From Gammaproteobacteria bacterium (GTDB lineage: Bacteria > Pseudomonadota > Gammaproteobacteria > GCA-2400775): DNA of 64,000 nucleotides. The notes below the pieces were generated by a model, which searched no databases, was not told where the DNA came from, and saw nothing but the letters and a program-made list of their open reading frames with translations. Each line of letters begins with the position of its first letter. Position 1 is the stretch's first letter. Shown piece by piece: positions 12,191 to 29,337 of this stretch. A program made the position numbers and the translations under genes. The stretch lies in NCBI GenBank assembly GCA_015492075.1, contig WGFU01000037.1, positions 1,425-65,424 on the forward strand, read 5' to 3'.

Positions 12191-12706
12191 ATGCCTGCCA
12201 ATGATCAAGACCAGCGCCTAATTGTCTTTTTATTAGGCTCGGCATTTTTTTTGTTTATCGGTACTACGCATGGCGTCGTACAGGTCTTGCCCGGAATTAG
12301 AGACTGGCTGGTCTCGGTCGGCACTCCGGTGAGCGGCCCCGGCCATATGATTGACCCCCTGGCCCACGCCCATATCAATCTGGTAGGCGGTATGGTGCTG
12401 ATCGGCATGGCAATGAGCTATTATCTGTTTCCACGCATTGCTGGCTGCCGCATCTGGTCGAGCCGATTGATCAGTCATTCATTTTGGTGGACTGCTGCCG
12501 GCGTAGTCGGGTTCTACAGCACCTTGATGGTATTTGGCATCACTGAAGGCAATTTGATGCGCGCCGGAGAGCTGGAACAACAAGCGGCCGTTCATGCCTA
12601 CTACGGGCTAACCATTAGCGTCCCCGCAACTATTATGGCCATTGGTTTCTGGATGTTTTTTATCAACATCTTTGCTACCGCACGCACCTACTTCAAGAAC
12701 CGCTAA
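12191..12706 (+). CDS. stand-alone heme-copper oxidase subunit I C-terminal-like membrane protein (half subunit I)
   Basis: 171 aa, ~5 TM; LAHAHINLVGGMV...SYYLFPRI aligns with the helix-X HxH region of the CcoN-like protein (AHAHLALLGF...VYYGLQ) and with the 188-aa paralog at 27115. Confidence 0.5.
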   Translation: MPANDQDQRLIVFLLGSAFFLFIGTTHGVVQVLPGIRDWLVSVGTPVSGPGHMIDPLAHAHINLVGGMVLIGMAMSYYLFPRIAGCRIWSSRLISHSFWWTAAGVVGFYSTLMVFGITEGNLMRAGELEQQAAVHAYYGLTISVPATIMAIGFWMFFINIFATARTYFKNR

Positions 12707-12718
12707 CACTACATCACC

Positions 12719-13243
12719 ATGATTCTAGACTGCGGCTGCCCCGAACATTACCCAGCGCAATGGGATGGACAAGACGTTAACCTCGGCGGGCACTGCGTTC
12801 ATACTCTATCGATTCTGATGTTGCTGCATATGCCATTGGCCTATGCAAGCTATCTACAGCGCCAAGCCTACGCTATTGCCGATCTCGAATTGAAAGAGCG
12901 CTGGCCCGGTCTAGTGTTGACCAAAACCGGCATGTTCCGCGGCGAAATATTACGCCTGATTGAACCCAGCGATTCGCCATCGCGATTAATCAAATATCTG
13001 CCAGTAGATTTTAATGTTCGCTGCGTTATTCACCAGGGAAGCATGGCTACATTGCGAAACAGCGCGCGCCTGCTGCAACAGAGTTTGTTCGACGAGGGCA
13101 AGCTACCTAAAGAAATGTATCTCTGCCACCTTACCTGCCCCAGATGTGCTGATGACCGCGGCGGCGAAAAGATTCTTCTATTACGCCGCTGGCAGGCCAG
13201 CGCTACACTTCAGCGACGCCTTGATAGAAAAAAACGGTCTTAG
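12719..13243 (+). CDS. Cys/His-rich hypothetical protein
   Basis: 174 aa; CGCPEH at the N-terminus and CHLTCPRC near the C-terminus suggest metal binding; no recognisable family. Confidence 0.4.
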   Translation: MILDCGCPEHYPAQWDGQDVNLGGHCVHTLSILMLLHMPLAYASYLQRQAYAIADLELKERWPGLVLTKTGMFRGEILRLIEPSDSPSRLIKYLPVDFNVRCVIHQGSMATLRNSARLLQQSLFDEGKLPKEMYLCHLTCPRCADDRGGEKILLLRRWQASATLQRRLDRKKRS

Positions 13244-13620
13244 TCATTTTTTAGCCAAGGCAGCTCGAATTTGAGCTCAGTCTGCTGCTTACCACGGCGC
13301 AGATGCACATAGAGATACTTATCCCCCTCTTCGATTTTTACCGCCCGGCGAAAAATACCAATATGGCCATCCTGTACCGACTGCACCCATTCTGCAGATG
13401 GGTTTGCGCGTAAAGAAACGACCAGGCTCGAAGCCGGCCCACCCTTTTTCTTGGTTGCTTTTAACCAAATTTCATTATGGCCTACGCGCACTGGATAGGG
13501 GTGGGTTTCTATTTTGAAAATAATATCATTCCATAGCTGTGCTGGAATACGGGCACGCTCGCCTTTGCTGCAGGCAACGCTAAGTACACATAACAAAACA
13601 ATGAATAATAGTCGACGCAT
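13240..13620 (-). CDS. hypothetical periplasmic lipoprotein
   Basis: 126 aa; signal peptide ending LSVAC (lipobox-like); last gene of the long minus-strand polycistron. Confidence 0.45.
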   Translation of the reverse strand: MRRLLFIVLLCVLSVACSKGERARIPAQLWNDIIFKIETHPYPVRVGHNEIWLKATKKKGGPASSLVVSLRANPSAEWVQSVQDGHIGIFRRAVKIEEGDKYLYVHLRRGKQQTELKFELPWLKND

Positions 13621-13625
13621 TTAAC

Positions 13626-13934
13626 TTATTGATCCTTTGCATTCAGGGTTAAATAGTTAGTAATCTCGCTGAGTTCGGACTCGTTAAGCAAACGCATTGC
13701 CCGTTGTGCCCGGTGTCTTTGCATACGCCAAACAACTGCTTGCCATTGCGCTGCCGTTTTTGTTTCCGGCTTGGGCAGGCCGTGGCAACCACTGCAATAA
13801 CGACTCAAGATAGTGTTTGCCGGTAGTTTCTTCACTGTTACTTTCTTATCAAACGCTGCCGGCTTACTATCACAGCCGACACTTAGCACTATCGCAATAA
13901 AGGCAATCAGACTACGGTTTATCCGGCTCATCAT
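13626..13934 (-). CDS. mono-heme c-type cytochrome lipoprotein
   Basis: 102 aa; lipobox LSVGC; single CSGCH heme-binding motif. Confidence 0.6.
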   Translation of the reverse strand: MMSRINRSLIAFIAIVLSVGCDSKPAAFDKKVTVKKLPANTILSRYCSGCHGLPKPETKTAAQWQAVVWRMQRHRAQRAMRLLNESELSEITNYLTLNAKDQ

Positions 13935-14361
13935 CGCCCCGCTTTACCTCTTTGTCAGAGTCTAAACGCCCCCCTGCCTTGGAACCATAAAGACTCAGCA
14001 TAGCGTAAATAAAACCGGCACAGATCGCGATATAGACCAAGGCCAAAGCAAAGCCCCAGTTAAACCATTCACGCTCAAAGCCTTCGCGGTCACCCCAGAA
14101 AGGAAAACTCAAACCGATAGCAAATAACAAGACGGCGATAATTACCGCGACAAACCACTTGGGTATGGATGCCTGAGATTCCGGAATCTTATCAACCATC
14201 TCCCAGTCTTCAAGCCCACGCTTGGCCAGACGCTCTTCTTCCGAGCTATAGCCGTAAAAATCTTCCGCCTCCTGGCCCCATTTGGGTTGGGTCGGAGAGG
14301 AAGCCACATCACTTGTCTTTGAATCAAGGTCTTTAACTTGGTCTGTTTGTTTGGTAGCCAT
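13912..14361 (-). CDS. CcoP N-terminal-domain-like membrane protein without heme c (FixP_N-like)
   Basis: 149 aa, 2 TM; RGLEDWEMVDKIPESQASIPKWFVAVII resembles the CcoP N-terminal motif (DGI.E.DN.LP.WW); no CxxCH; start overlaps CcoG-like stop by 1 nt. Confidence 0.45.
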   Translation of the reverse strand: MATKQTDQVKDLDSKTSDVASSPTQPKWGQEAEDFYGYSSEEERLAKRGLEDWEMVDKIPESQASIPKWFVAVIIAVLLFAIGLSFPFWGDREGFEREWFNWGFALALVYIAICAGFIYAMLSLYGSKAGGRLDSDKEVKRGDDEPDKP

Positions 14362-15668
14362 TATTTTTTTACCGATACATGATTAACACGGAAACTACTT
14401 TGCCAGCCGTCACCAGCCTTTACACGCACCAAAAACGGATAAAAACCTGGTGCCAGCTTATCACTAATAGTGAAATTTACATCTTGTCGCTGTGCAGTAC
14501 TAAATCGTGCAACATCCGCCTCGAGTTGATAACTGTTTTCCGGCAAACCCTCTATCGTTACGGACACTTCACTCGGCCTATAGAGTTTGTGGGCCAGAGA
14601 GACACGATACTCATTTATTTCTCGCCCTTGCGCAGTGCCGGTGTGAGAGACTGAAAACCGATATGGCTCATACGTCACCATGCCCCAGCCAAACATGCCC
14701 AGCCCCAATATCACTAACGGTAATATCCACAACAAGCGCGCACGCAATGCAGTCATCACATTGCGTGGTTCATCCCGGTCTTGCTGGCGCTGCCCCAGCT
14801 CAAATTTAAGCAGGCTAGCGCCTGTTTTACGCGAACCGCGAATATTCTGACAAGCGGCAATGCATTCACCACAATTGACGCAGGCGTCGTAGGTTTGCGT
14901 CTGACGTGGGTCAATCTCGACAAAGCATGCTGTCTGACAAAAATTACAGCGCGCGCATTCTTCTTGCTCCGATGCATCGTAAACAATGTGCAAGGTTTCT
15001 TTTGTTTTAAAAGAATGCTGCCAAACCTTGTAAACACACATAAAGCGGCAAAAGAAATGGCGTAGATATGCAACATCGATAAAAATTATCAATACAAAAA
15101 TACTATAAATATAGTATTCAGAACCGCTCATACGCTCTTCGCTCTGAAAAGTGACAAAATTCCACAACATATCCAGAGGGTAAAAATAAAGCATTGGCAC
15201 TAATGCAACGATCATCGAAAAGCCAAGCAGTATCGCGCCTAAGCCCAGCCAGTTAACAAATTTGTTTTTTCCAGATGACACTTTCATCGGCGCGCCATCA
15301 AGCATAATCTCCGAACGTTTGCCCAGCAAACGTCGGTGCCAATAATTGGCCCACTCCGACAGCGTGTTTTGCGGGCAGCTCCAGCCACAAAAGGCAGTGC
15401 CCACTGCAGAATAAGTGATAATCAGCGCGCTCGACACCATTAACCAAAAACCAATAATAATAAAAAAGTCGCCAAAATCGATCTGCCTACCAAGTATGAC
15501 AAAGGCACCCGCCAGCACATCAATACGAAACACCCCTAACAAGGGTATCAGTATCGCGACTAATACGGTAATCGCCTGTAACCATCGGCGGCGACGATGT
15601 AATTTTTGACCAAGGTTATTATTAACGGTAATAACCGGTATTTGAGAGAGGGTAGATGGTTGGTTCAT
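14361..15668 (-). CDS. ccoG: cytochrome c oxidase accessory polyferredoxin CcoG/FixG-like
   Basis: Two 4Fe-4S motifs CNFCQTAC and CVNCGECIAAC, ~5 TM, and a C-terminal FixH-like beta domain. Start taken at Met52 of the 486-aa ORF (MNQPS...) to avoid overlap with the upstream gene. Confidence 0.7.
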   Translation of the reverse strand: MNQPSTLSQIPVITVNNNLGQKLHRRRRWLQAITVLVAILIPLLGVFRIDVLAGAFVILGRQIDFGDFFIIIGFWLMVSSALIITYSAVGTAFCGWSCPQNTLSEWANYWHRRLLGKRSEIMLDGAPMKVSSGKNKFVNWLGLGAILLGFSMIVALVPMLYFYPLDMLWNFVTFQSEERMSGSEYYIYSIFVLIIFIDVAYLRHFFCRFMCVYKVWQHSFKTKETLHIVYDASEQEECARCNFCQTACFVEIDPRQTQTYDACVNCGECIAACQNIRGSRKTGASLLKFELGQRQQDRDEPRNVMTALRARLLWILPLVILGLGMFGWGMVTYEPYRFSVSHTGTAQGREINEYRVSLAHKLYRPSEVSVTIEGLPENSYQLEADVARFSTAQRQDVNFTISDKLAPGFYPFLVRVKAGDGWQSSFRVNHVSVKK

Positions 15669-15690
15669 AGCTGCTTCGCTTATTCTTGCT

Positions 15691-18300
15691 CTACTCGACC
15701 CGGAAGGGTTCTGATTCATACAATGGACTAATCTGATGTAACTGATCCAAGTATTGACGACTGGCGTTGTCATCTTCCAAACGCTGCGCCAAACGCAACA
15801 AGGCCGCAAGCGTAGGTACATGACCCGGCTTAACGGCCAGAATTCGCATCAAACCGGCTTTCTCTGTTTCAGTCGCGACTGTCATGCCAGACATGGACGC
15901 TAACATTCGGTCTGCCAGTGTACCACTGACCCATTGGTCACGTGGATTCCCGCGGTAGGCGAATTGCAAAAAACGCTGTGCTCGCTCGCTGTCACCACGC
16001 AGTTGCGCCTGCCAACTGCGCATTGATGCATCAACAGACAAATAAGAGCGTTCGAAACTTTGCAGATCAGCATATTCAATAGCAAGTTCCTGCGCTGATT
16101 CCCGTGCCTGCGGCCGCTGTGCCAGCAACCAGGAAATAACTTGCTGTAAATCAATCTCGCCACTGTAGCGCACTCGCGGCAAATGATATTCGATACGCGG
16201 CCGCCATTCGTCTTCGATAATACTTGATGGACTATCGATACGGCCGAAATAACGCCCAAGCCATGTCCAAACTCCTTCCCCTCCGGTCTTGCTTTGATCG
16301 GATTCAATGTTGTTTCTGTTGGCCAGCAGATGGCTAGCGCTGATCGCACCATCCTTGCCGCCTACCATCGCCAACCTAAAACCATCGACAAACAAACTAG
16401 CACCGGGGAAGCTTTGTTGAAAACTCTTGAGCACAATTTGCAACGCCTCCAGGTCAAACTGATTTAGCGCCAACCATTGTACAAACAGACCATTGTCGTT
16501 CAGACGCGCTTTAACCCTCTCAAACTGCTGCGATGACAACAACCGACTGCGGCCAACCATGTCAGGATGAAACAAATCGCCAATGATGACATCGTAATGT
16601 TCATGGTTACGCATCAGGTAGCGACGTGCATCATCACGCACGATACGCGCCTTATTGATCACATCACGATTAAGCGGTGAAAACCATTTTTCGGCCGATT
16701 CGATAACGCCTGCCGATAACTCCACCGCAGTGATATCAACATCAAAATCCAGTGCTGCCGATGCAGATATTCCTGTTCCCAAACCCAGGAACAATACTGT
16801 TTCAGCTTTAGAATGCAATAACAAAGGTAAGCGTGCCTGGTTTCTTTGTGCGACCACCGCTGTTGGCTCTGTCGATGCATCCATACGCTGTAAATCTGAC
16901 AACAGCAGACGCTGACCTTCGTTGGTTTCAACCACATGGGTCATCGCTATCGCATCTTCATGTATAAATAGCGTAGAACGACTGTTCGCATGCGCTTGCG
17001 GTAAAAGCTTGGTTACCGACGGCAAATCAGAAAAAACGGCAAAACTAACCAGCAACACTGGCAAGGCCAGCCATAACCTGCGCCACTGGCACCAACGCAT
17101 ACCTACGACAAACAATGTGAGTGCGGCAACAAGAATAGTCGCCGGAGTACCAATTAATGGCATTAATACAAACCCGGCCAACATAGCGCCAAGACCGGCA
17201 CCCACCGCATTAGCGCCATAGAGCCAAGCGCCGGCACTTGCCGAGTCGGCATACGCTCTCACCAATAATGGTAACCATGCGCCAAGACAAAATGTGACAG
17301 TAACCGTCGCCAGCGCTAATACGGCACCTTGCTTCATGAGTACATTCGGTAGCGAGCTGTATGTCAGCGTCTCCGCCCATGCCGATATCGACGGCAGACT
17401 GATTAATGAAACCACTGCTGCAAACGCCGCCACAAGGGGTAATAGATTCAACCAGATGCGGTGTCGCCCCCATTGGGATAAGGCGCTGCCCAGTGCGGTT
17501 CCGACCAGAAACACGGCAATAATCACTGCCAGCACATATTCGGTTCGTAACAATGCCATACCATAGAGCCGCGCCCATGCAACCTGCAATATCAGCGCCG
17601 CTGCACCAATTAAGGCGTAACTCAATAAATCATTAACTGCTGGCCTCGGCTGGCGATGGCCCGTATCTGTGCTTATCGCTGGCATCGACTGTGATAGCAA
17701 TAGAAACAGTATGCCAACAGCGATGCCCAGGGCGGCGATACTATAAAGGCTGTTAACCCAGCCTATGGCTGGCAATAATAAAACGGGGATCAAAGCGCCA
17801 ACGCCTGCCCCCACAGTGTTCGCTGCGTAGACATGGGCTACCGAAATAGACGATTCTTTTATCGCTGCCAGAATCAGGGGGAAACCCAAGCCTAGGGCGG
17901 TCGCTGGCACTAGCATAAAGAATAGAGCACCGATCACCTCCATGCCATGCCAGGCAGCTAGGCCAAGCTCGCCATAAGAACTGACGAGAACATTAACCCA
18001 GTACTCGTTGAGTGCGGGCAAAATGAGCGCATAGAGCGCCACTGCTATCTCAATACATGCAAATATCAGCAAGGGGTTTTTAAACGGTGCGAGAATTATT
18101 CTGCCTAAAATGCTGCCTAGGCCTAAACCGAGCATAAAGGCACTAACCGTAATCACCACGCCAAAATTGCTTACCCCAAACTGCAAGCTCAGCATCCGCA
18201 TCCAGAGCACTTCGTAAGACAGGGCGGCCAACCCCGACAGTGCATAGAGAGTAAGCAGGCTAATGGCGACTAAGCTTGTGTTTGACCGTATGGTGGTCAT
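15691..18300 (-). CDS. fused MFS-like membrane domain / spermidine synthase-like (PABS fold) protein with C-terminal TPR-like region
   Basis: 869 aa; ~14 TM N-terminal region starting LSGLAALSYEVLWMRML; SAM/aminopropyltransferase-like core LFLGLGTGISASAALDFDVDITAVE...DVIIGDLFHP; helical repeat tail. Confidence 0.7.
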   Translation of the reverse strand: MTTIRSNTSLVAISLLTLYALSGLAALSYEVLWMRMLSLQFGVSNFGVVITVSAFMLGLGLGSILGRIILAPFKNPLLIFACIEIAVALYALILPALNEYWVNVLVSSYGELGLAAWHGMEVIGALFFMLVPATALGLGFPLILAAIKESSISVAHVYAANTVGAGVGALIPVLLLPAIGWVNSLYSIAALGIAVGILFLLLSQSMPAISTDTGHRQPRPAVNDLLSYALIGAAALILQVAWARLYGMALLRTEYVLAVIIAVFLVGTALGSALSQWGRHRIWLNLLPLVAAFAAVVSLISLPSISAWAETLTYSSLPNVLMKQGAVLALATVTVTFCLGAWLPLLVRAYADSASAGAWLYGANAVGAGLGAMLAGFVLMPLIGTPATILVAALTLFVVGMRWCQWRRLWLALPVLLVSFAVFSDLPSVTKLLPQAHANSRSTLFIHEDAIAMTHVVETNEGQRLLLSDLQRMDASTEPTAVVAQRNQARLPLLLHSKAETVLFLGLGTGISASAALDFDVDITAVELSAGVIESAEKWFSPLNRDVINKARIVRDDARRYLMRNHEHYDVIIGDLFHPDMVGRSRLLSSQQFERVKARLNDNGLFVQWLALNQFDLEALQIVLKSFQQSFPGASLFVDGFRLAMVGGKDGAISASHLLANRNNIESDQSKTGGEGVWTWLGRYFGRIDSPSSIIEDEWRPRIEYHLPRVRYSGEIDLQQVISWLLAQRPQARESAQELAIEYADLQSFERSYLSVDASMRSWQAQLRGDSERAQRFLQFAYRGNPRDQWVSGTLADRMLASMSGMTVATETEKAGLMRILAVKPGHVPTLAALLRLAQRLEDDNASRQYLDQLHQISPLYESEPFRVE

Positions 18301-18920: not shown

Positions 18921-18922
18921 AA

Positions 18923-19993
18923 TTAACCCTGTTCGCCTGTAATATCCTTAACGCAGCGAAAACCATAAAAATCCGAAGCATAGTGAGGAAACGAGTAATT
19001 ACGATGGTAAGAAGAGGTGGCAAAAGGATCACTTTTAAACGAACCGCCGCGCATCACCACATAGCTTGCTTCAACTTCAACCAAGTCGACAACTTTCAGT
19101 GACTTATCCAGCGATGTCGTTGCCTTGCCTATTTTTGGAATAAAGAGTTCCGCTGGTGCGTCGCTGCCTTGATACGCCTTGAATTCGTCTGCGGTCCATT
19201 CGCTAACATTACCTGCCATATCAAACACCCCATAAGGGCTTGCACCAGCAGGATAGCGCGTGACATCGGTCGCAGAACCAACATTATAGTAAGTATTAAG
19301 GTTGTCAGCGTCCATAATATTGCCCCATGGCCAGCGACGACCGTCGACACCGCGAGCGGCCTTTTCCCACTCCATCTCTCGAGGCAATCTTGCCCCTGCC
19401 CAATCGCAATACGCTGCCGCATCATACCAGGACACCATGGTCACTGGCGCCAACAAATCACCTGGTCGCATGCGACCGCCGTCCCAGTGTAAAGGCGGTC
19501 GATGCCCCGTATCGGCAACGAAGCGCGCATATTCCGCATTCGTCACGGGATACTTTCTAATAAAATAGGTATCAAGCCAGGGCCTATGCTCAGGCTTATC
19601 CTGGTCGTTAGCCAGCTTGCGGTTGGTACCCATAATAAACTCGCCAGCTGGGATCTCTATCCAAGTCCCTAGCTCCGACCAAATATCGTCTTTGAGTAAT
19701 TGCTCAGCTTGCTCAATGCTATAGGTGGTTGCGACCGTGTTTAACGCTTCGTTCTCCCGGTGGCGAGTAATATCTTCGCCGGCCGCACGAATGCGAGATG
19801 CCATTTCAGATAAATCGTAGGTGGCATTGGAGCGCATTTGGTCGATACGACTGCCACCCAACTGAACGATATGATAGAAAGCAAACGCGGTCGCTACCGC
19901 TGCGCAAGTGACCAGGGTTGCAGCCAAATAACTTTTGCGCTTTTTACGCTCAGCAGCGCTGACTTCAGGGCGTTGAGGGAAATGTGCCGACAT
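18923..19993 (-). CDS. membrane-anchored formylglycine-generating-enzyme (FGE/SUMF1) family protein, NirV-like
   Basis: 356 aa; N-terminal TM; FGE-sulfatase domain signatures (IPAGEFIMGT, DWAGARLPREMEWEKAARG, RGGSFKSDP). Confidence 0.8.
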   Translation of the reverse strand: MSAHFPQRPEVSAAERKKRKSYLAATLVTCAAVATAFAFYHIVQLGGSRIDQMRSNATYDLSEMASRIRAAGEDITRHRENEALNTVATTYSIEQAEQLLKDDIWSELGTWIEIPAGEFIMGTNRKLANDQDKPEHRPWLDTYFIRKYPVTNAEYARFVADTGHRPPLHWDGGRMRPGDLLAPVTMVSWYDAAAYCDWAGARLPREMEWEKAARGVDGRRWPWGNIMDADNLNTYYNVGSATDVTRYPAGASPYGVFDMAGNVSEWTADEFKAYQGSDAPAELFIPKIGKATTSLDKSLKVVDLVEVEASYVVMRGGSFKSDPFATSSYHRNYSFPHYASDFYGFRCVKDITGEQG

Positions 19994-19994
19994 G

Positions 19995-20486
19995 CTACTT
20001 GTCCGACTTCAGACTGTCTGGTTCATCCTTATAGACAAGATGACGCGGTAGCCGACCATAGGTTTTTTTTACCCATACCTCGCCCAGGATACCGCCAACC
20101 GCGGCAGACTCAATGGCGACGATGATAATAAACCCCATATAACCAATTGGCAGCAAACGCATATCGTCCGGTATCGCGCTGGTACCAGCCACGGTACTAA
20201 AATATTGATGTAGGTAAACAATAAGGGCTGGAAAATAACACAATACCTTACCACCTAGACCGTAGATAAGAGAAACAATAACACCGGCAACGAAGGGGGT
20301 GAAAACTAAGCCAATGAACAAACTAGGGTGAAAATACGAGGTCAGGTCACCGAACAGTTCCATGCGTACTCCGAATATAAAATTCAGTGCATACATCGCT
20401 GCTGCGCCAGCCGTAATGGCAATCAAGGCCCACTTAACAGCCTCTAATTTATTGCCGATCGCCATCGTTCGGACCAGGCCACTCAT
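19995..20486 (-). CDS. hypothetical 4-TM membrane protein
   Basis: 163 aa; 1-nt gap to the FGE gene; overlaps the upstream cytochrome c stop. Confidence 0.45.
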   Translation of the reverse strand: MSGLVRTMAIGNKLEAVKWALIAITAGAAAMYALNFIFGVRMELFGDLTSYFHPSLFIGLVFTPFVAGVIVSLIYGLGGKVLCYFPALIVYLHQYFSTVAGTSAIPDDMRLLPIGYMGFIIIVAIESAAVGGILGEVWVKKTYGRLPRHLVYKDEPDSLKSDK

Positions 20487-20997
20487 TACCGGTTAATTTT
20501 CTGTATTCCAGTTTTTTTAGATCCTCGAGATACCAATCTTCCACCTTCAAGCTAGCCATATAGGCCGCCAGGGTTCGTCTCTCTGACTCTGTCAGATGTG
20601 CATACGAAGGCATACTCCACTCACGCTTTAAGCGACCTTTCAGCATAGTTTGCGGGTTTTCCGAAGAGAAATACTCAAACAACCATTGTTCACTGCGCAA
20701 TGAACCGACACCGTCCAAAATTGGCGCAGGCACAGTCGCCATGATGTTTTTGACCGTCCACAGCGAATGGCATTTTTTACAGTTTTGCGCCTTATAAATT
20801 TTATCGCCGGCACGAGTAAGCTCTTTCGACGCGGTACTGTAAAAGGGAATTGATTTTTCTTGGCTAGGCGTCTCGGAAAAACCAAAATAATTACGCACCA
20901 TCAGCCCGACCACGAAGATGGCCATACCACCCAATATCCATTTTTCACCACGACGCATATTGACTACCCGTTTATATACTGAGACGATGACCACCAA
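20449..20997 (-). CDS. membrane-anchored mono-heme c-type cytochrome (paralog of 27678..28355)
   Basis: 182 aa; N-terminal TM; CKKCH motif. Shares the motif RGEK-TM...C..CH...LDG(V/I)GS(L/R)RS(E/Q)(Q/D)W(L/I)..F(F/L)S with the module B cytochrome. Confidence 0.6.
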   Translation of the reverse strand: MVVIVSVYKRVVNMRRGEKWILGGMAIFVVGLMVRNYFGFSETPSQEKSIPFYSTASKELTRAGDKIYKAQNCKKCHSLWTVKNIMATVPAPILDGVGSLRSEQWLFEYFSSENPQTMLKGRLKREWSMPSYAHLTESERRTLAAYMASLKVEDWYLEDLKKLEYRKLTGNEWPGPNDGDRQ

Positions 20998-21255: not shown

Positions 21256-21540
21256 TCAAGAACCTTGCTCTGCACTGCGCGCCGCCCTTTGCTTAGCCAA
21301 TACTTCGGCACGACGCTTTTCTTGTGCTGCATTAACTGCTTGCGATTTGGCAAACTCCTCTGGACTCATCTTATCCCGGTCTTTTTCATCGAATACGAGA
21401 TATTTGATATCTTCATCAAACTGCTCATTTTTATACGCCCATCGAATACCGTAGATAGCAGCAATAATAATACCGCCTGCCGCGACCATCCACAGATAGA
21501 TTGTCCACCCATCAGGTAAGGCTTGCATGAATTCAGTCAT
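21256..21540 (-). CDS. CcoQ/FixQ-like small subunit
   Basis: 94 aa; single TM followed by IRWAYKNEQFDEDIKYLVFDE, matching the FixQ pattern TM-W(A)Y..K(R)K..FDE. Confidence 0.45.
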   Translation of the reverse strand: MTEFMQALPDGWTIYLWMVAAGGIIIAAIYGIRWAYKNEQFDEDIKYLVFDEKDRDKMSPEEFAKSQAVNAAQEKRRAEVLAKQRAARSAEQGS

Positions 21541-21549
21541 CGGTCTCTC

Positions 21550-21840
21550 CTAAATAAGCTGGCCAAAAAGCAATTGCGCCGCGCCATATATCACCGCACA
21601 CACCAGGCCAAATATCAGCCAGACAAACAATATCACCTCGCCACGGCGCATACCCTCCTTCTGCGCATCCCTGGTAAATTTGTAAACAATCACCGCAAAC
21701 AAAACGATACCAGCCATCATAAAGAAAAAAATACCGATACTGTATTCTTGGGACTTCATCCCTTCGATCGTAAACTGGTCTAGCTCCTCATCGGAGAGAA
21801 CAATCGCTTGTTGGTCGGTTTCGTTCATTAGGTGACACAC
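21550..21840 (-). CDS. hypothetical 2-TM small membrane protein
   Basis: 96 aa; first gene after the hairpin terminator; 9-nt gap to the CcoQ-like gene. Confidence 0.4.
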   Translation of the reverse strand: MCHLMNETDQQAIVLSDEELDQFTIEGMKSQEYSIGIFFFMMAGIVLFAVIVYKFTRDAQKEGMRRGEVILFVWLIFGLVCAVIYGAAQLLFGQLI

Positions 21841-21898
21841 GAACTAACACAGTAGTAGACAATGCTAGACTGAAAAAGGTTTAAAAATTCTAAGAAAA

Positions 21899-21920
21899 AT
21901 GCCGCTCAGATGAGCGGCAT
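21899..21920. terminator. intrinsic terminator hairpin inside the oxidase locus
   Basis: ATGCCGCTC-AGAT-GAGCGGCAT, a perfect 9-bp stem with 4-nt loop. It is followed on the minus strand by TTTTTCTTAGAATTTTT and lies 195 bp after the CcoP-N-like gene. Confidence 0.5.
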
Positions 21921-22114
21921 TTCCTTATTTCCTTCAGAAGTGCGCTAAGAAGCCACGCACAGGCTATTTTACTGCTTATCAGACTTGTCGAATTTATCAA
22001 TCATAAAGCTATAGATATAAGGTGCTACGAACACGACCAAAATAGGTATGAGTATTATTAATGGTGGATTATCGATTTCTAACATTTCATTTCACCTGTA
22101 ACTGTAAGTAATGC

Positions 22115-22744
22115 CTAATGACCGATTGAGTGGTCGGGCTGCCAATCAGACGGCGGCAAGCGCTTAACAACAATCATTACGGCTATACAAAAATAGAGCA
22201 CATAAAAAACGTCGATGGTGTAACCGAGATCCCAAGATGGCTGAACCCGAATCTTAACACCATCATCGCCAATCTCACCTTCAAAGTTTGCTAACGCCAC
22301 GTCTTTACCTACGACAGTATAGTAGTCCATATGGGCATTTTCGCGCTGCAATTCGATGATTTGGTCTTTAATTAGTCGCAGATCATTCATAGTTAACGGA
22401 TGACGATCCTGATGACCAGCCCATTTCGAACCCTGAGATTTCACTGTATTAACAATGTATTCCATTTTTGCTTCATCGTCAGGTAATTTAGCAACTTCTG
22501 GCGAGTCCATGAGCGCGATATATTCTTCGTATATCGCAGCCATCGGGCGTTGCCCCCACAAAGGCGCAGTAATCAAAAAGGCAGTAATAATAGTCAGAAC
22601 CAACAACCAGACCACGGCTTGTGGCAAACGGTTATTGTCCTCCATAATACCACCCAGGCTTTCATGTTCCCAAACATACTTCGCTTGCTCATTCTGGTCA
22701 TCAGTTGCCAGGGTATAAAGTGGTTTATCGAATTTCCAAGCCAT
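22115..22744 (-). CDS. CcoP N-terminal-like membrane protein lacking both heme c domains
   Basis: 209 aa; EHESLGGIMEDNNRLPQAVVWLLVL matches the CcoP N-terminal motif; TM, periplasmic domain and a C-terminal TM; no CxxCH. Confidence 0.5.
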   Translation of the reverse strand: MAWKFDKPLYTLATDDQNEQAKYVWEHESLGGIMEDNNRLPQAVVWLLVLTIITAFLITAPLWGQRPMAAIYEEYIALMDSPEVAKLPDDEAKMEYIVNTVKSQGSKWAGHQDRHPLTMNDLRLIKDQIIELQRENAHMDYYTVVGKDVALANFEGEIGDDGVKIRVQPSWDLGYTIDVFYVLYFCIAVMIVVKRLPPSDWQPDHSIGH

Positions 22745-22771: not shown

Positions 22772-23722
22772 TTACTTCAAACTCAAAACATAATCCATGA
22801 GATAACGTATTTCGCTATTTGGCGCATAATCGGGAACCTCAGGCGGATAAATACTCGTACCGGCGGCGTAAGCATTATAATCCGCCCGCCATTGATCATA
22901 GTCAATATCGTTACCATTAGCATCCACTTCACCCCAGAGATAATCGAAGCGAGGCATAATTGAATGTGGCTGCACCAATCTTGGGTTAAAGAAGTGCATC
23001 ATCAGCCATTCTTTTGACGAGTTACGTGAACCAACATGCAGCAAGTCAGGCGCTTTGCGATCCGAACCAAAGGCTGTTGGCGCTTCACCATTAAAGTCTC
23101 CCAGCCGCGGCGGTAAACCGAAGTATTGCCAATCCTGTGTTTGTTCTGGCAATAGTGTGTGACACCACCAGCAACCTTCACGCACAAACATGGTCTTACC
23201 GCTACCTACATGCTGCTTATCGCTGTCTGCAGCAGCTGCCAATACCAACTCAGCTGTCCAGTCACGCGTTGCCGTCACATTTTCGATATAAGGGAAGGTC
23301 TCCCCTTCGTAGTCACCACGCGACACCAAAAATACAGCGCCTTGATCTTCCTCTGCTTCACCCACGCGACCCTCGTCGGCACTTAAGGCCTGCACTTCCC
23401 TACCCAAAATATCTGGGTTACGAATTGCGCTCGGAAAAGGTGTCCCGGCGGTATAAACATAGGCATCTACCGGGTCAATATCCGCGCCAGTAACTGGGTC
23501 TTTTTTAACCGTCACCGTTAAAGGCTTGCCTTTCCCTCGCAAGAATGGGTCTTCATACGAGAAACCAGAGTTATGACCATAGGACAGACCTTTGACCAGA
23601 CCAGTTTCCGTCACACCCACACTATAGATAGTTAAGCTGGGCATATAGAGGGTGATCATCATTGAACCACCCAGGGCGATACCAAACATGCGGGTACCAA
23701 TTTTATATTCTCTAAAAGCCAT
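22772..23722 (-). CDS. CcoO/FixO-like mono-heme cytochrome c subunit with ~110-aa insertion
   Basis: 316 aa; N-terminal TM; CWWCH; C-terminal NSSKEWLMMHFFNPRLVQPHSIMPRF resembles the conserved CcoO C-terminal segment; heme motif displaced to ~residue 180. Confidence 0.7.
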   Translation of the reverse strand: MAFREYKIGTRMFGIALGGSMMITLYMPSLTIYSVGVTETGLVKGLSYGHNSGFSYEDPFLRGKGKPLTVTVKKDPVTGADIDPVDAYVYTAGTPFPSAIRNPDILGREVQALSADEGRVGEAEEDQGAVFLVSRGDYEGETFPYIENVTATRDWTAELVLAAAADSDKQHVGSGKTMFVREGCWWCHTLLPEQTQDWQYFGLPPRLGDFNGEAPTAFGSDRKAPDLLHVGSRNSSKEWLMMHFFNPRLVQPHSIMPRFDYLWGEVDANGNDIDYDQWRADYNAYAAGTSIYPPEVPDYAPNSEIRYLMDYVLSLK

Positions 23723-23784: not shown

Positions 23785-25191
23785 TTAACGTTCGTAAGCG
23801 ATTTCATGCGGTAAGCGTCCCACTGGCACCGGTGTACCTGCACGAGCCGTCATCCACATGTTGTAGAGCCATACAACGTTACCAGTAAATACCATGGTAC
23901 CGCCAACCCAACGCGCAATCATGTACGGATGCTCCGCAATCACCACGTCGATATACGGCACTTCGTAGATCTTGGCAGCGCCTTGAATCAAACCGGCAAT
24001 CGTGATCGAAATCCAGTAGGTGGCGAAACCGATCAGCAAGAACCAGAAATGAAAGTTGGCCAGCGCCAAAGAGTAGATCTTGCGACGCAGAATCGTTTGC
24101 AGACCATAGTACACGGCTGCCGCCTCAAGGAAGGTCGAGAAACCCAGCAAAGCAAGGTGAGCATGAGCGACAATCCAGCCAGTGCCATGGACATACCAGT
24201 TGATCGCACGTGTCTGCTGAAAACCGCCCTGCATATTCAAAGGAATCGCCAGCATAACCCCGGTGATGGTGAACCGGATCTCAATATTATCAACAAAGTA
24301 ATGCCACTTGCCCGTCATGGTTAACAACAAGTTCGACACGAATGCGATCGCAGGCACCAGAATCAACACCCCTTCAACAGAAGCGAAAGATTTCAGCCAC
24401 TCAGGCAGTGGTGAAGACATCAAATGGTGGGCTGCCGGCGTTGAGTAGAACACCACCACCGACCAGAAATGCAAGTGACCAATACGGTGAGAGTACAGTG
24501 GGTTACCGGTAATTTTCGGCACCGTATAGTATGCAATCGCCGCCGCCACCGGGGTAATCCACAGGCCAAGGATGTTATGGGCATGCCACCAGGTCAAATA
24601 GGCTTCGGTCAATCCAGTCAGGGAAAAGTATTCCGGCAGATTACCGACCAGCACCACGATCATCAGCATGAATATCGCCGCACCAAAGAACCAGTTGGTG
24701 GTATAGATACCCTGCGTCTTACGATGAACAATGGTCATCCAGACATTGATTCCCAGCGGCAGCAATACTGCAAACAGGATAATCAAATCAATCGGCCATG
24801 GAAAATCAGTGTATTCACGGCCTGAAGTCACACCGGCCCACATCAAACACAAAGCGACGGCAAGACCACCGTTCCAGTTGAAGCAGGTCCAGATGCCCAG
24901 CTTCTCGGACCATAGCTTGGTATTACCCAAGGCAGGCGTGATATACATAAAGGCCATTGCAAACGCCATGGAAATCCAGCCAAAAATAACGGCCATGACA
25001 TGAACCTGGCGCATATGACCAAAGGCAAACATATAGCTACCGGTAACAAAATCCGGAAAAGCCAACTTGGCTGCGTTGAAAGAACCTAGTCCAGTACCAA
25101 TAATGAACCAGATAATGGATGAAAACCCAAAAAAGACAGCCGCAGAACCTGCGGGAATATCTTCGTTCTTCGCAAAGAGATACTTGAACAT
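23785..25191 (-). CDS. C-family (cbb3-type) heme-copper oxidoreductase subunit I, CcoN-like, divergent
   Basis: 468 aa, 12 TM. W201-W-H-A-H205-N replaces the CcoN WWYGHN motif; Y249-5x-H255-H256 (crosslink Tyr plus CuB His pair) and helix-X H343-x-H345 are present; heme ligand region FGHMRQVHVMAVIF. Confidence 0.85.
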   Translation of the reverse strand: MFKYLFAKNEDIPAGSAAVFFGFSSIIWFIIGTGLGSFNAAKLAFPDFVTGSYMFAFGHMRQVHVMAVIFGWISMAFAMAFMYITPALGNTKLWSEKLGIWTCFNWNGGLAVALCLMWAGVTSGREYTDFPWPIDLIILFAVLLPLGINVWMTIVHRKTQGIYTTNWFFGAAIFMLMIVVLVGNLPEYFSLTGLTEAYLTWWHAHNILGLWITPVAAAIAYYTVPKITGNPLYSHRIGHLHFWSVVVFYSTPAAHHLMSSPLPEWLKSFASVEGVLILVPAIAFVSNLLLTMTGKWHYFVDNIEIRFTITGVMLAIPLNMQGGFQQTRAINWYVHGTGWIVAHAHLALLGFSTFLEAAAVYYGLQTILRRKIYSLALANFHFWFLLIGFATYWISITIAGLIQGAAKIYEVPYIDVVIAEHPYMIARWVGGTMVFTGNVVWLYNMWMTARAGTPVPVGRLPHEIAYER

Positions 25192-25398: not shown

Positions 25399-25686
25399 TT
25401 AGGCTGCAGCACGTGACTGCGCTTCCAAAGCACCATGACGTGACGCAGAAATCATCATGATCGCCATAAAGGCAAAGCCGAACACAATCATGCACCAATT
25501 GATGAAGCCCATAAAGGTGGTTGGATCATAGGCCTGACCACCCCAACCGCCCCAGTCATCAAAACGACCGCGACCGAGAGCACACATCAATGCGGCACCA
25601 AAAACACTGCCGTTGCCCATGCCGGTGGTAACACCAGCAACCAAGCTCACCCAAAAAGTTTTCGAATATGGCAATAAATTGTCCAT
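25399..25686 (-). CDS. hypothetical 2-TM membrane protein, first gene of the CcoN-like operon
   Basis: 95 aa; AAGGAG RBS 5 nt upstream; Gly/Trp-rich loop (DDWGGWGGQ). Confidence 0.4.
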   Translation of the reverse strand: MDNLLPYSKTFWVSLVAGVTTGMGNGSVFGAALMCALGRGRFDDWGGWGGQAYDPTTFMGFINWCMIVFGFAFMAIMMISASRHGALEAQSRAAA

Positions 25687-26157: not shown

Positions 26158-26610
26158 TTATTTGTATACGCGCAGACTTGCCAGTGCATCATCATAAACG
26201 GCCTGAGACTCGAACTGACCACGATGAAAAACGTATTGGCGTTTTTTGCCCGACATATCAATCCCTGTTAGACCAAAGGATTTGCCAGCGTAATCTGAAA
26301 AAAAACGCACTTCTTTCACCAGCGCAACCTGGTCATTATTGCGTAGCCGGACACTGACGTGCTGCTTACTCACACTCAGCGCAACCGGTGCGCTCGGCAA
26401 CAACATCAGTCGACCGGAAAGAATGCGGTTGGCGCCGATAAAGGCCATAAAACTAGCGAGAAACATCAGCAAATAGGCAAACGCTTGATTATTCTGGTGC
26501 CACAGCACCAATGAATAAGCACCAAGCAAAATCACCACTGGCAGATACAGCAATGAATCCCACGCCGCGCCGCGCCGGTCTGGCGTTAATTTGTAATCAC
26601 TTTTGGCCAC
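26158..26610 (-). CDS. membrane protein with C-terminal PH-like (YdbT/bPH-type) domain
   Basis: 150 aa; 2 N-terminal TM plus ~80-aa soluble domain; last gene of module B. Confidence 0.4.
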   Translation of the reverse strand: MAKSDYKLTPDRRGAAWDSLLYLPVVILLGAYSLVLWHQNNQAFAYLLMFLASFMAFIGANRILSGRLMLLPSAPVALSVSKQHVSVRLRNNDQVALVKEVRFFSDYAGKSFGLTGIDMSGKKRQYVFHRGQFESQAVYDDALASLRVYK

Positions 26611-26614
26611 AAAA

Positions 26615-27172
26615 CTATCCTGCGTCGGCTAAGGTCTCGGCCAGTAAAGCGTCCATTTCACCATAAAGCATACGACCTGGCCGCCTGAACTTAACTTGTC
26701 GGTCGGCGCCAATAACAAATGTCCACGGATCACCTTGGACACCAAATGCAGTGAAAGCTTCAGGGTTTTGATACTGATCCATATGCAAAAACAGCACATC
26801 ATCTTCGTACTTATTCAATATGGCTTTGAGCATCTGCAGCTGTTTATCGCATACCGTACAATGTCCAGGTGTAGCAAATTCGAGCAAAATCGTCTTGTTT
26901 TGCGCCAAGGCTTCATCGATCGAAAGCTGATACATGCGGGCATCGGGATGTCTGTAGGTTGTAATGCGGCTGAAATCACCGTTCACGTCCGCCAGCGTCT
27001 TGGTCTTCAATGACGGGGCGATCGCACCAACCCGAAGCTGACCCTCTGGCCTGATATCGCATGCGCTTAAGGCTGCTGCTACTACGATTGTCAGCAATAT
27101 TGCTATAAACGGCCTCACGAGACCTCCTTCGCAGACGATGATGGTGCGCTGCCTAGAACGTCTTTTTCCCAA
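26615..27172 (-). CDS. thioredoxin-fold (TlpA/ResA-like) thiol-disulfide oxidoreductase lipoprotein
   Basis: 185 aa; lipobox LSAC; CxxC active site FATPGHCTVC; redoxin fold length. Confidence 0.6.
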   Translation of the reverse strand: MGKRRSRQRTIIVCEGGLVRPFIAILLTIVVAAALSACDIRPEGQLRVGAIAPSLKTKTLADVNGDFSRITTYRHPDARMYQLSIDEALAQNKTILLEFATPGHCTVCDKQLQMLKAILNKYEDDVLFLHMDQYQNPEAFTAFGVQGDPWTFVIGADRQVKFRRPGRMLYGEMDALLAETLADAG

Positions 27173-27681
27173 CCGACACAGCTACGAAAAACGTTATAGC
27201 CCCAGATAATGTTGGCTAACAGCACCATACTGCCAAAGATGCCCATCGCAGCCAACCAAGGCCTGATTATGGCTTCCACTTCATCGGGCGGCAAACTCAC
27301 ACTCGCAGTACCACCGAGAATACCTGCAATCGTAAACAAACTCACCATACCGATCAGACCGGTGTTATGGATCCAAAAGTGTACTTTTACCAATTTCAAA
27401 CTGAAAATAGGGCGTTTAACCAAACGCGGCACGAAATAATACACCGAGGCAAAAATCGCCATCTCCACCCAGCCTAACAGGTTAACGTGGGTGTGCGCGC
27501 GTACAATCAGCTGCCCATGTGCGCGATGATCGACGAAATGGCGCAGTTCGGCCACCCCTCCCATTAACGCACCCCAGGAAAAGCCGATTATGCTGTAGAT
27601 GATACAGGCATAAAGAAACCACAGTGTATAACGCGTGTATTCAATATCTGTCTCCCAGGGGGAGTGACTCGAAACCTTCAC
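27115..27681 (-). CDS. stand-alone heme-copper oxidase subunit I C-terminal-like membrane protein (half subunit I), paralog of 12191..12706
   Basis: 188 aa, ~5 TM; RAHTHVNLLGWVEMAIFASVYYFVPRL and HFWIHNTGL align to helix IX-XII of the CcoN-like protein; 4-nt overlap with the upstream cytochrome c gene. Confidence 0.5.
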   Translation of the reverse strand: MKVSSHSPWETDIEYTRYTLWFLYACIIYSIIGFSWGALMGGVAELRHFVDHRAHGQLIVRAHTHVNLLGWVEMAIFASVYYFVPRLVKRPIFSLKLVKVHFWIHNTGLIGMVSLFTIAGILGGTASVSLPPDEVEAIIRPWLAAMGIFGSMVLLANIIWGYNVFRSCVGWEKDVLGSAPSSSAKEVS

Positions 27682-28355
27682 TGCTGCGCCTCCGGGTTTT
27701 CAGCCAATTTCCCATTGGGAGACTTCAGGACTTCGGTAAAATTCTTGTCACGCACATCACCGTATTTCTCTTTCCAGCTTTCCGGCGCCCAGATACTGAG
27801 CATGCTCTCAATAAACGGCGAGCGCCCTTCCGGCGGCTTAGGTGCCGTTGAGGAACCCTGTTTAGCACGCAGTTGAGACAAAAACGTTGCGATCAAGTCA
27901 TGCTCTCGCGGCGTCAGCTCAGCCACATAGGCAGCTTCTTTACCCAAACCGTGATCAAGCGTTGCTGCGTGGTAGGTGTCTTTGTATACCGGCTCTGGGT
28001 CACTGAGAAAGCGCCTGATCCAATCCTGGCTACGACGCGAGCCAATACCATCGAGCGTGGTCTGACCGCCCATACTCGTGCCAGACAAAAAAGCACGATG
28101 ACAAGACGCACAACGCTTAGCCTTGAAAAGTCGATGGCCCTTATTGCCGTCTTCGGACAAATCAAAACTGGTGAGATTTGAAAAAATCTGCTTGTTCGAA
28201 GTCAGGCGATACCCTTCCAAGCCGACATAACCCACCAACGCCACCACAATAAATACACCAGCGATGCCAAATAAGACCTTTTCGCCTCGCTTTAGCCTCG
28301 ACTTCGCAGCCATAAAAACCCCGCAATTATTCCAGATAAAACAAAAGGTGGACAA
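27678..28355 (-). CDS. membrane-anchored mono-heme c-type cytochrome (paralog of 20449..20997)
   Basis: 225 aa; N-terminal TM; CASCH; shares RGEK...LDGIGSRRSQDWIRRFLSDP with the module A cytochrome. Confidence 0.6.
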   Translation of the reverse strand: MSTFCFIWNNCGVFMAAKSRLKRGEKVLFGIAGVFIVVALVGYVGLEGYRLTSNKQIFSNLTSFDLSEDGNKGHRLFKAKRCASCHRAFLSGTSMGGQTTLDGIGSRRSQDWIRRFLSDPEPVYKDTYHAATLDHGLGKEAAYVAELTPREHDLIATFLSQLRAKQGSSTAPKPPEGRSPFIESMLSIWAPESWKEKYGDVRDKNFTEVLKSPNGKLAENPEAQQ

Positions 28356-28419
28356 GCCACCCTTTGCTTAGTTCAAACCCGCACCATCATGCCATGGCGC
28401 GGGATACCACATACCGAAC

Positions 28420-29181
28420 CTAGTGGTAAGGCACGTGGCGTGGCGGTAAGCGGGAATTACCCATGCTGTAGGGGGATGCTTCCTTGGTGCTGAGATAGGC
28501 AGCAACGTTGTGGATGTCCTCGTCGGACATATTCTTGGCAACATTGCGCATCGCTGCCTGCGGATCATTGGTCCGCACACCATCACGCCATTGCTTCATT
28601 TGAGCCACGAGATAGGTATATTTCTGCTGCCCAATCATCGGGAACATTGGCTCAACGCCGCGGCCGTTATAATCATGGCAAGAACGGCAAGCTGCCACAC
28701 TCTTTTCAGCAATACCGTGATTAACGATGGCTTTACCCAAATAGGTTTCACCGACCTCAACACCATTCGCCTTCAATGTGGCCAGATTAGAAACAGAGGC
28801 ATCAACCGTTTCTCTATCATGTTGCCATTCGCTGATATAAGCCGCCACATCAAGGCGCTCCTGCGAAGTCAGGCCTTTGGCGTTAGCATTCATGATAAAC
28901 ATGACGGTATCTTCACGCTTGTCGGTCGCATAATCTTCCAGCTGCTTGACGATAAACTGGAAAATCTGGCCGGCCAGACGCGGGGTGCCTAAATCGTCAC
29001 TGCCCATTCCGTCCGGCATATGGCAGCCAGAACACGCTGGTACGCCAGTGGCTTCTTTGCCGTTGTTATAAATCTGCTCGCCGTTTGCTACATCGACAGT
29101 CACGCCGCCGGCGAAAACAGCGGAACTTGCTGAAAACGCAAAAGCAAAAAGCGAACCCACCAACCTAGTTGAGTAACGCAT
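28420..29181 (-). CDS. di-heme c-type cytochrome (c4-like), periplasmic
   Basis: Two heme motifs CSGCH and CRSCH. Start moved to the internal Met (MRYSTRLVG...) with signal peptide and GGAGGG RBS; the ORF-track 29271 start adds a non-signal extension. Confidence 0.7.
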   Translation of the reverse strand: MRYSTRLVGSLFAFAFSASSAVFAGGVTVDVANGEQIYNNGKEATGVPACSGCHMPDGMGSDDLGTPRLAGQIFQFIVKQLEDYATDKREDTVMFIMNANAKGLTSQERLDVAAYISEWQHDRETVDASVSNLATLKANGVEVGETYLGKAIVNHGIAEKSVAACRSCHDYNGRGVEPMFPMIGQQKYTYLVAQMKQWRDGVRTNDPQAAMRNVAKNMSDEDIHNVAAYLSTKEASPYSMGNSRLPPRHVPYH

Positions 29182-29337
29182 TACTACACCCTCCAAAAAA
29201 CTGTGTCGAGGCCGTAACCGGCCTTTTGTTAAAGGTAGTCTGTGACCTACTGCCAACGCAGAGCATTTCACTATGCAGCAGCCAATAATGTCAGATCTAT
29301 GTCAGGTAAGTGAATCACCTACCATTTTTTGGTTTGC

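Follow-up and report, generated by a model that had tools for sequence, protein, structure and literature searches.

Why does the operon of a respiratory heme-copper oxidase carry, between its other genes, a gene for a protein that is folded like formylglycine-generating enzyme (FGE)? This question is raised by a stretch of 64,000 nucleotides, called the window below, that covers positions 1,425 to 65,424 of contig WGFU01000037.1 from a Gammaproteobacteria bacterium (assembly GCA_015492075.1) and is identical in sequence to a contig of the metagenome-assembled genome GCA_027053915.1. An initial annotation, made by a model from the sequence alone, had placed this FGE-like gene in an oxidase operon and had taken its product for a copper-dependent oxidase, comparable to NirV, that matures or modifies a redox partner. 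In this study we find that the product has kept the FGE fold and lost the catalytic residues throughout a family of orthologues, and that its gene holds a fixed place in a conserved cluster of 16-17 genes. With about even confidence we propose that the FGE-like protein has no catalytic role and serves, tethered to the membrane on its periplasmic side, as an accessory subunit or assembly factor for a CcoNO-only oxidase. In such an oxidase CcoN and CcoO are the only recognisable structural subunits, accompanied here by some 14 further conserved genes.

The gene itself is well defined. Because it has 167 unique full-length orthologues (the set to which all counts below refer), it is not a chance open reading frame. 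Direct reading of both junctions gave a single nucleotide between the upstream stop codon and the FGE-like start (TAG-c-ATG, gap at 19994, aagTAGcATGtcg) and two nucleotides between the FGE-like stop and the downstream start (TAA-tt-ATG, gap at 18921-18922, ggtTAAttATGctt), exactly as first annotated; overlaps occur at other loci. The description as a 356-aa FGE-domain protein with one N-terminal transmembrane segment was borne out as well. PF03781 (FGE-sulfatase) matches residues 110-349 with E=3e-53 and 181 bits against a cut-off of 23, it is the sole Pfam domain found, and the N-terminus before it consists of an anchor and a stalk. The setting in a heme-copper oxidase operon likewise holds, with genes for CcoN, a CcoO-like subunit, c-type cytochromes and a CcoG-like protein on the same strand.

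Is the protein still an FGE? For comparison we used two plasmid-encoded true FGEs (H2 and H5), one of which lies beside a sulfatase gene. In the alignment their catalytic motif RGGSFLCHVSYCDRYH stands opposite RGGSFKSDPFATSSYH of the FGE-like protein, with the first catalytic cysteine replaced by Ser321 and the second by Thr326, and the loop that reads RGGSFLCHVSYC in the true FGEs reads RGGSFKSDPFAT here. Among the orthologues, position 321 is serine in 142, glycine in 23 and threonine in one, position 326 is threonine in 163 and serine in three, and cysteine occurs at neither. The tryptophan of the FGE motif GNVWEW corresponds to S264, a position occupied by serine (110 orthologues), aspartate (23), asparagine (18), phenylalanine (14) or tyrosine (1). 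FGE binds its Cu(I) cofactor via this very cysteine pair (PMC5324649, PMC12123546). Since the pair is absent in all 167 orthologues, FGE-type copper-oxygen chemistry can be regarded as excluded on the grounds of sequence, and the protein reads as a pseudo-FGE that would not form formylglycine.

This bears directly on the copper-dependent oxidase of the FGE/NirV type that the initial annotation had in mind. The idea draws on the fold, on the neighbourhood of a copper enzyme and on NirV, which is similarly anchored and encoded beside NirK. The missing cysteines speak against it (PMC5324649), and their loss is an observation that the initial annotation had itself named as a refutation. So does the distance to NirV: aligned with the NirV of Sinorhizobium meliloti, encoded on pSymA directly downstream of NirK (L029:22737-23651), the FGE-like protein reaches 40 bits at 31% identity and 28% gaps, versus 99 bits with a true FGE. 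Moreover, the cluster contains no nirK, and NirV itself is without demonstrated activity (PMC4770552). We consider a copper oxidase of this kind extremely improbable. Orthology to NirV was rejected for the same scores and for the lack of a NirK-type multicopper protein in the cluster, so that the parallel drawn with NirV survives as an analogy of architecture and context. Four plasmid matches from the tblastn search (H27, H2, H5 and H14) were rejected as NirV, two of them serving as the true-FGE comparators named above.

A link to sulfatases found no support either. When the 64-kb window was searched by tblastn with a true sulfatase, no match was better than E=0.79, the sulfatase signature C/SxPxR....T/SG had no match, and PF00884 was absent from the 20 window open reading frames of at least 330 aa. 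The proteins of the cluster hold no CxPxR target of FGE, and the three Ser-type partial matches among them are not conserved. The statement that no sulfatase lies nearby holds for the window. Of the role first suggested one half stands: the protein has nothing to do with sulfatase activation and a role tied to the oxidase is best supported, and the copper-oxidase mode has to be given up.

The catalytic pair is lost, yet the domain is not degenerate, as its former catalytic loop is the most conserved segment. The C-terminal segment 310-350 has an entropy of 0.63 bits; K320, D322, P323, F324 and R331 are invariant, H330 is kept in 163 of the 167 orthologues (asparagine in three), and Y329 is replaced by phenylalanine in 15. 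It might therefore be asked whether the protein is an active enzyme with a re-tooled site made up of K320, D322, F324, Y329, H330, R331 and N332, perhaps together with a metal. Such an enzyme could modify an oxidase subunit or a cytochrome, or carry out small-molecule chemistry for the complex. The place of the conserved loop, at the location of the FGE active site, would agree with this, as would the closest solved relatives by sequence, which are enzymes or biosynthetic proteins (the OvsA and EgtB C-domains, ToxD, CalU17). The EgtB-related C-terminal signature TIGR04373 also matches weakly, at 23 bits where its cut-off is 71. However, no known catalytic constellation is left, with the FGE cysteine pair and the DinB domain both absent; Y329, H330 and the equivalent of the active-site tryptophan vary as described; and no candidate substrate motif was found in the cluster. 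We regard a re-tooled enzyme as unlikely. The DinB domain carries the iron site of EgtB and OvoA, and a synthase of the EgtB/OvoA/OvsA type was rejected for lack of this domain and for a score of 128 bits against the cut-off of 360 of TIGR03440 (EgtB).

The fold is clear. An AlphaFold2 model reached a pLDDT of 90.6 and a pTM of 0.81 with an alignment of 148 sequences that included a distant Blastocatellia-type clade; 30 close orthologues alone gave a pLDDT of 61. The model shows a continuous helix over residues 13-55, which comprises the anchor and the start of the stalk, followed by two short helices, and the whole FGE fold lies between about residues 93 and 350. All Foldseek matches have the FGE fold (ToxD, CalU17, the C-domains of EgtB and OvsA, pFGE and FGE), with E between 1e-19 and 1e-15 and identities of 24-29%, and no single match stands out; the best single-sequence match in the PDB is OvsA (1.9e-24). 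When 1.84 billion cluster representatives (50% clustering) were searched exhaustively with HMMER, 122,844 superfamily matches came back. Among the top 150, one is full-length (360 aa, 59% identity, residues 15-352) and the others cover the domain alone, from about residue 105. Because those are domain-only, the architecture of anchor, stalk and domain marks one compact orthologous family, and the FGE-like protein is best placed as a new family of this kind within the FGE-fold superfamily. Within the stalk, M53, R69-A-A-G72-E73 and W105 are conserved. More distant FGE-domain homologues in Blastocatellia and other Acidobacteriota (29-42% identity) occur without an oxidase context. We found no description of the anchor-stalk architecture in the context of a respiratory oxidase operon in the literature searched. 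Database labels for the family (‘formylglycine-generating enzyme family protein’, ‘iron(II)-dependent oxidoreductase’ and ‘serine/threonine protein kinase’ among them) are misleading, and metagenome surveys should not take them for signs of sulfatase metabolism.

How is the domain held, and where? The sole hydrophobic segment has its Kyte-Doolittle peak at residues 21-39 and is preceded by ERKKRK. Because this positive cluster comes first, we infer from the positive-inside rule an orientation with the N-terminus inside and the C-terminus outside, which would place the FGE domain in the periplasm. A25, T26, C30 and H41 of the anchor are invariant in 167 of 167 orthologues, and the anchor as a whole (20-44) is about as conserved as the domain core (106-220), at 1.19 and 1.14 bits, which is unusual for a passive anchor. 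T26, C30, A34 and G38 lie at i+4 spacing on one face of the helix, and H41 follows after another turn; small residues predominate at positions 34 and 38 without being universal there. This pattern of small residues, cysteine and histidine suggests helix-helix packing. The residues LVTC around Cys30 also resemble a lipobox, in which position -1 varies only to serine or alanine; lipoboxes seldom have a threonine at -1, however, and hydrophobic residues run on for 14 positions past Cys30. Either as a signal anchor or through a lipid on Cys30, the segment would keep the domain at the membrane, on its periplasmic side.

The gene is also tied to the oxidase by synteny. Relatives were found in Ferrovum myxofaciens, an acidophilic iron oxidiser that is in culture, as well as in uncultured Thiotrichales, Chromatiales and Nitrosomonadales and unclassified Gammaproteobacteria, and the FGE-like gene has a fixed position in every locus with enough flank. 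It is preceded by p95, ccoN, ccoO, p209, p96, a ccoS-like gene, a cytochrome c gene and the gene for a protein with four transmembrane segments (4-TM). Behind it stand p79, p124, a fusion of the major facilitator superfamily (MFS) and spermidine synthase (SpdSyn), a ccoG-like gene, p149, (cytochrome c) and a lipoprotein gene. Compared with their Ferrovum counterparts, CcoN of the window is 81% identical and its FGE-like protein 52%. The initial annotation had suggested co-occurrence with ccoN-like genes as a check, and a metagenome scan from the ccoN side agreed with it: of the 80 loci recovered, 36 extend 5.3 kb or more downstream of ccoN, and all but two of these, 34 in number, carry the FGE-like gene (>80% coverage). 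The exceptions, L034 and L098, have CcoN proteins of 83-88% identity and no FGE-like gene nearby. L034 breaks after p209 into housekeeping genes (peroxiredoxin, polyprenyl synthase, Obg), and L098 breaks after p96 into open reading frames without a family match. Because both break off early, the ccoN-ccoO-p209 core is separable from the accessory half of the cluster.

These exceptions are in line with another explanation, namely that the genes from cytochrome c182 to the 126-aa lipoprotein form a separate copper or redox module, centred on the CcoG-like protein and the MFS-like fusion, which would supply or reduce the copper for CuB. The FGE-like protein would then be a copper-handling or chaperone-docking part in the periplasm, outside the finished oxidase. 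The ten genes from 20997 to 13240 are indeed tightly packed, with overlaps or gaps of at most 9 nt, and the core without the accessory half is what L034 and L098 carry. CcoG is described as a cupric reductase. The MFS protein CcoA imports copper for cbb3 oxidases (PMC3266609, PMC5829832). FGE folds also recur beside genes of periplasmic copper centres (NirV with NirK, and a second FGE-like open reading frame with SCO/SenC in Ferrovum), and Cys30 and His41 are invariant. Against such a module, these two residues are separated by 11 positions of a helix, a distance that would not let them chelate one ion, and the periplasmic domain has no conserved copper motif rich in cysteine, methionine or histidine. 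Furthermore, the CcoG-like protein reaches 108 bits on TIGR02745, below the cut-off of 317, and the MFS part is a conjectural counterpart of CcoA. On balance we think a separate copper module quite unlikely.

The fixed position in a packed operon, the conserved anchor, the loss of every known catalytic feature and a former substrate groove under strong purifying selection are the reasons why we expect a product made in fixed proportion to its neighbours and acting at the membrane, which is the accessory subunit or assembly factor proposed at the outset. Such a protein would begin in the cytoplasm with a short, positively charged N-terminus and cross the membrane by one anchor helix; about 60 residues of helical stalk would then lead to the FGE-fold domain on the periplasmic side. 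The anchor helix would dock on a membrane complex via its conserved face of small residues, cysteine and histidine, and the remodelled former substrate groove would provide a binding surface for a periplasmic partner, for which the enlarged CcoO, a cytochrome c and an intermediate of maturation are candidates. The FGE-like protein might thus act stoichiometrically, as a subunit or in assembly, and not as an oxidase. There is precedent in that the FGE fold is repeatedly used as a non-enzymatic binding or structural module (pFGE, PorK/GldK, Tsi3).

Several points weigh against this proposal. Physical association of the FGE-like protein with the oxidase is putative. Judging by the two loci with a bare core, the protein may be part of a distinct module. 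A lipobox (LVTC), instead of a docking face, could be all that lies behind the invariant Cys30, and the high conservation of the former catalytic loop would fit a re-tooled active or metal site equally well as a binding surface. A bolder idea is that the FGE fold might have been re-tooled to a new class, either a cysteine-independent enzyme with K320, D322, H330 and R331 or a heme- or copper-insertion factor with Cys30 and His41. In both cases it would be an obligatory part of an undescribed machinery of CcoNO-only C-family oxidases, in which it would fill roles that belong to CcoH or CcoP in canonical cbb3 oxidases. We give this idea a small chance.

What does the rest of the operon tell us? 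CcoN keeps all heme and CuB ligands of cbb3 oxidases and the cross-link tyrosine when aligned to the Pseudomonas stutzeri cbb3 structure (3mk7_A). Because of this the complex reads as a cbb3-type O2 reductase, and identity as an NO reductase was rejected. The heme domain of the CcoO-like subunit is preceded by about 150 residues that match no family. Structural genes are mixed with genes of maturation type (CcoS-like, CcoG-like), and with p94 a gene for oxidase maturation seems to stand in mid-operon. Conserved histidines and cysteines occur in several small proteins, namely p95 (C35, H84), p209 (H115, H205), p79 and p124, and may be cofactor ligands or interaction sites; in cytochrome c182, C73, C76 and H77 are conserved. 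The 869-aa fusion, which is always in the cluster, joins a many-helix MFS-like domain to a spermidine-synthase-like domain and a helical C-terminus. The number of promoter-like sites does not exceed background (23, with 20.2 expected), and the operon is not clearly split by any terminator-like site. The coordinates of the features are collected in Table 1.

Table 1. Features of the FGE-like gene and of the oxidase cluster in the window
Feature	Position	Strand	Basis and remarks
FGE-like gene	18923..19993	-	Open reading frame, ATG start, 356 aa; Cys-less FGE-fold protein
Hydrophobic membrane anchor, residues 21-44	19862..19933	-	Kyte-Doolittle; AlphaFold2 helix; conservation
Helical stalk, predicted periplasmic, residues 45-105, family-specific	19679..19861	-	Alignments; helices 61-67 and 73-82 in model
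FGE-fold domain, residues 106-350	18944..19678	-	Pfam; Foldseek
Remodelled former catalytic loop, residues 315-332, RGGSFKSDPFATSSYHRN	18998..19051	-	Alignment with true FGEs; 167 orthologues
p95, 95 aa, first gene of the conserved cluster	25399..25686	-	Syntenic in all loci
CcoN-type catalytic subunit	23785..25191	-	COX1 E=2e-73
CcoO-like mono-heme subunit	22772..23722	-	FixO E=1e-16, residues 174-264
p209 (CcoP N-terminal-like, without heme motif), p96 and p94 (CcoS-like)	21256..22744	-	Weak matches
p209	22115-22744	-	FixP_N E=4e-4, weak
p94, 94 aa, CcoS/FixS assembly factor-like	21256-21540	-	FixS E=0.003, weak; motif WAYKNEQFDEDIKYLVFDE
Mono-heme cytochrome c (c182), membrane-anchored, CKKCH	20449..20997	-	Cytochrom_C E=4e-9
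Upstream 163-aa polytopic (4-TM) membrane protein	19995..20486	-	Syntenic in all loci
p79, downstream small membrane protein, 79 aa	18681..18920	-	Conserved H32
p124, membrane protein, 124 aa	18310..18684	-	Conserved H99 and H113, on one helix, 14 residues apart
869-aa MFS-like/spermidine-synthase-like fusion	15691..18300	-	PF01564; NCBIfam NF037959
CcoG/FixG-like 4Fe-4S protein	14361..15821	-	Fer4_5, Fer4_18; start 15668 in source record gives 435 aa
Operon tail: 149-aa membrane protein, 102-aa lipoprotein-type cytochrome c, 126-aa lipoprotein	13240..14361	-	

Some further observations concern the surroundings of these genes. A hairpin with a perfect 11-bp stem (AAATGCCGCTC-AGAT-GAGCGGCATTT, 21897-21922) lies in the 275-nt gap between p209 and p96; within the operon it could serve for attenuation or for RNA stability. 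Two paralogues resembling the last four or so helices of CcoN flank the operon, one at 27115-27681 (- strand, 188 aa) and one at 12191-12706 (+ strand, 171 aa). Both keep the HxH motif (AHTHVNLLGW and AHAHINLVGG), like the ligands of heme b/b3, and both are conserved in related loci. An upstream module at 26158-29271 (- strand) combines two c-type cytochromes, one di-heme (283 aa) and one mono-heme (225 aa), and the CcoN-fragment paralogue with a thioredoxin-fold protein (HCTVC) and a 150-aa protein, and this set recurs in several related loci. A divergent upstream open reading frame of 463 aa was considered as Cyc2 and rejected, being a polytopic membrane protein without CXXCH. In Ferrovum only (L012:17380-18959, - strand, also L009-L011) a second, unrelated open reading frame with an FGE-sulfatase domain codes for a Cys-rich, secreted protein of 315 aa; its stop overlaps the start of a copper chaperone gene of the SCO/SenC type (HCPDVCP), about 1 kb beyond the oxidase cluster.

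The cluster is a distinctive cbb3-type oxidase system of bacteria of the iron- and sulfur-oxidising type. Oxidases of the cbb3 type are the proposed terminal oxidases of microaerophilic and of acidophilic iron oxidisers, and the Ferrovum genome paper assigned the cluster to the iron-oxidation chain as its cbb3 oxidase, recognising only subunits I and II, noting the co-located cytochromes and leaving the rest of the complex open (PMC4725956). In the literature searched, that on Ferrovum included, we found no mention of the FGE-like gene. Our analysis adds that a constant set of some 14 genes follows CcoN and CcoO, among them one for a dedicated Cys-less FGE-fold protein, and that this arrangement is common to Beta- and Gammaproteobacteria. 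If the FGE-like protein is indeed a subunit or assembly factor, it would be a new type of accessory in the biogenesis of heme-copper oxidases. It would also add a case in which an FGE fold has been taken into service next to a copper enzyme for something other than FGE activity, and this may help to understand NirV.

How does the protein compare with known systems? With FGE/SUMF1 (PDB 1Y1E, 6MUJ, 5NXL) it shares the fold, the Pfam domain and the motifs RGGS, GFRC and GNVxEW. Unlike FGE it has Ser321 and Thr326 in place of the Cu(I) cysteines, lacks the conserved tryptophan of GNVWEW and two FGE insertions, and has a family-specific insert (280-309), an N-terminal anchor with stalk and no sulfatase client found within 64 kb. 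Its shared C-terminal motif of the Y-(H)-R-N type recalls the C-domains of EgtB, OvoA and OvsA. Alike in lacking the catalytic cysteines are pFGE/SUMF2, PorK/GldK and Tsi3, FGE folds that are used, or proposed, as binding or structural modules; pFGE and PorK/GldK are among the PDB matches, and the Tsi3 immunity proteins provide a non-enzymatic precedent (bioRxiv 10.1101/2021.05.21.445229). The FGE-like protein falls into this class of FGE folds without known catalytic residues, which is a functional class and not a sequence family. It is not orthologous to these proteins: it differs from pFGE in sequence (about 25% identity) and from PorK/GldK in its score (TIGR03525, 77 bits against a cut-off of 350) and in having no genes of the type IX secretion system nearby, and from all of them, Tsi3 included, in architecture and in its respiratory oxidase operon. 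NirV, whose function is uncharacterised (PMC4770552; bioRxiv 10.1101/2021.05.21.445229), is likewise an N-terminally anchored FGE-domain protein encoded beside a copper redox enzyme, with different C-terminal motifs and with NirK as partner instead of CcoN/O. Finally, the accessory proteins CcoH, CcoS, CcoG, CcoQ and CcoM have no sequence relationship to the FGE-like protein and none has the FGE fold. What it has in common with them is that it is a membrane protein with a small anchor encoded together with ccoNO and with CcoS-like and CcoG-like genes, and CcoM illustrates that single-helix extra subunits of cbb3 oxidases can escape notice (PMC4742706).

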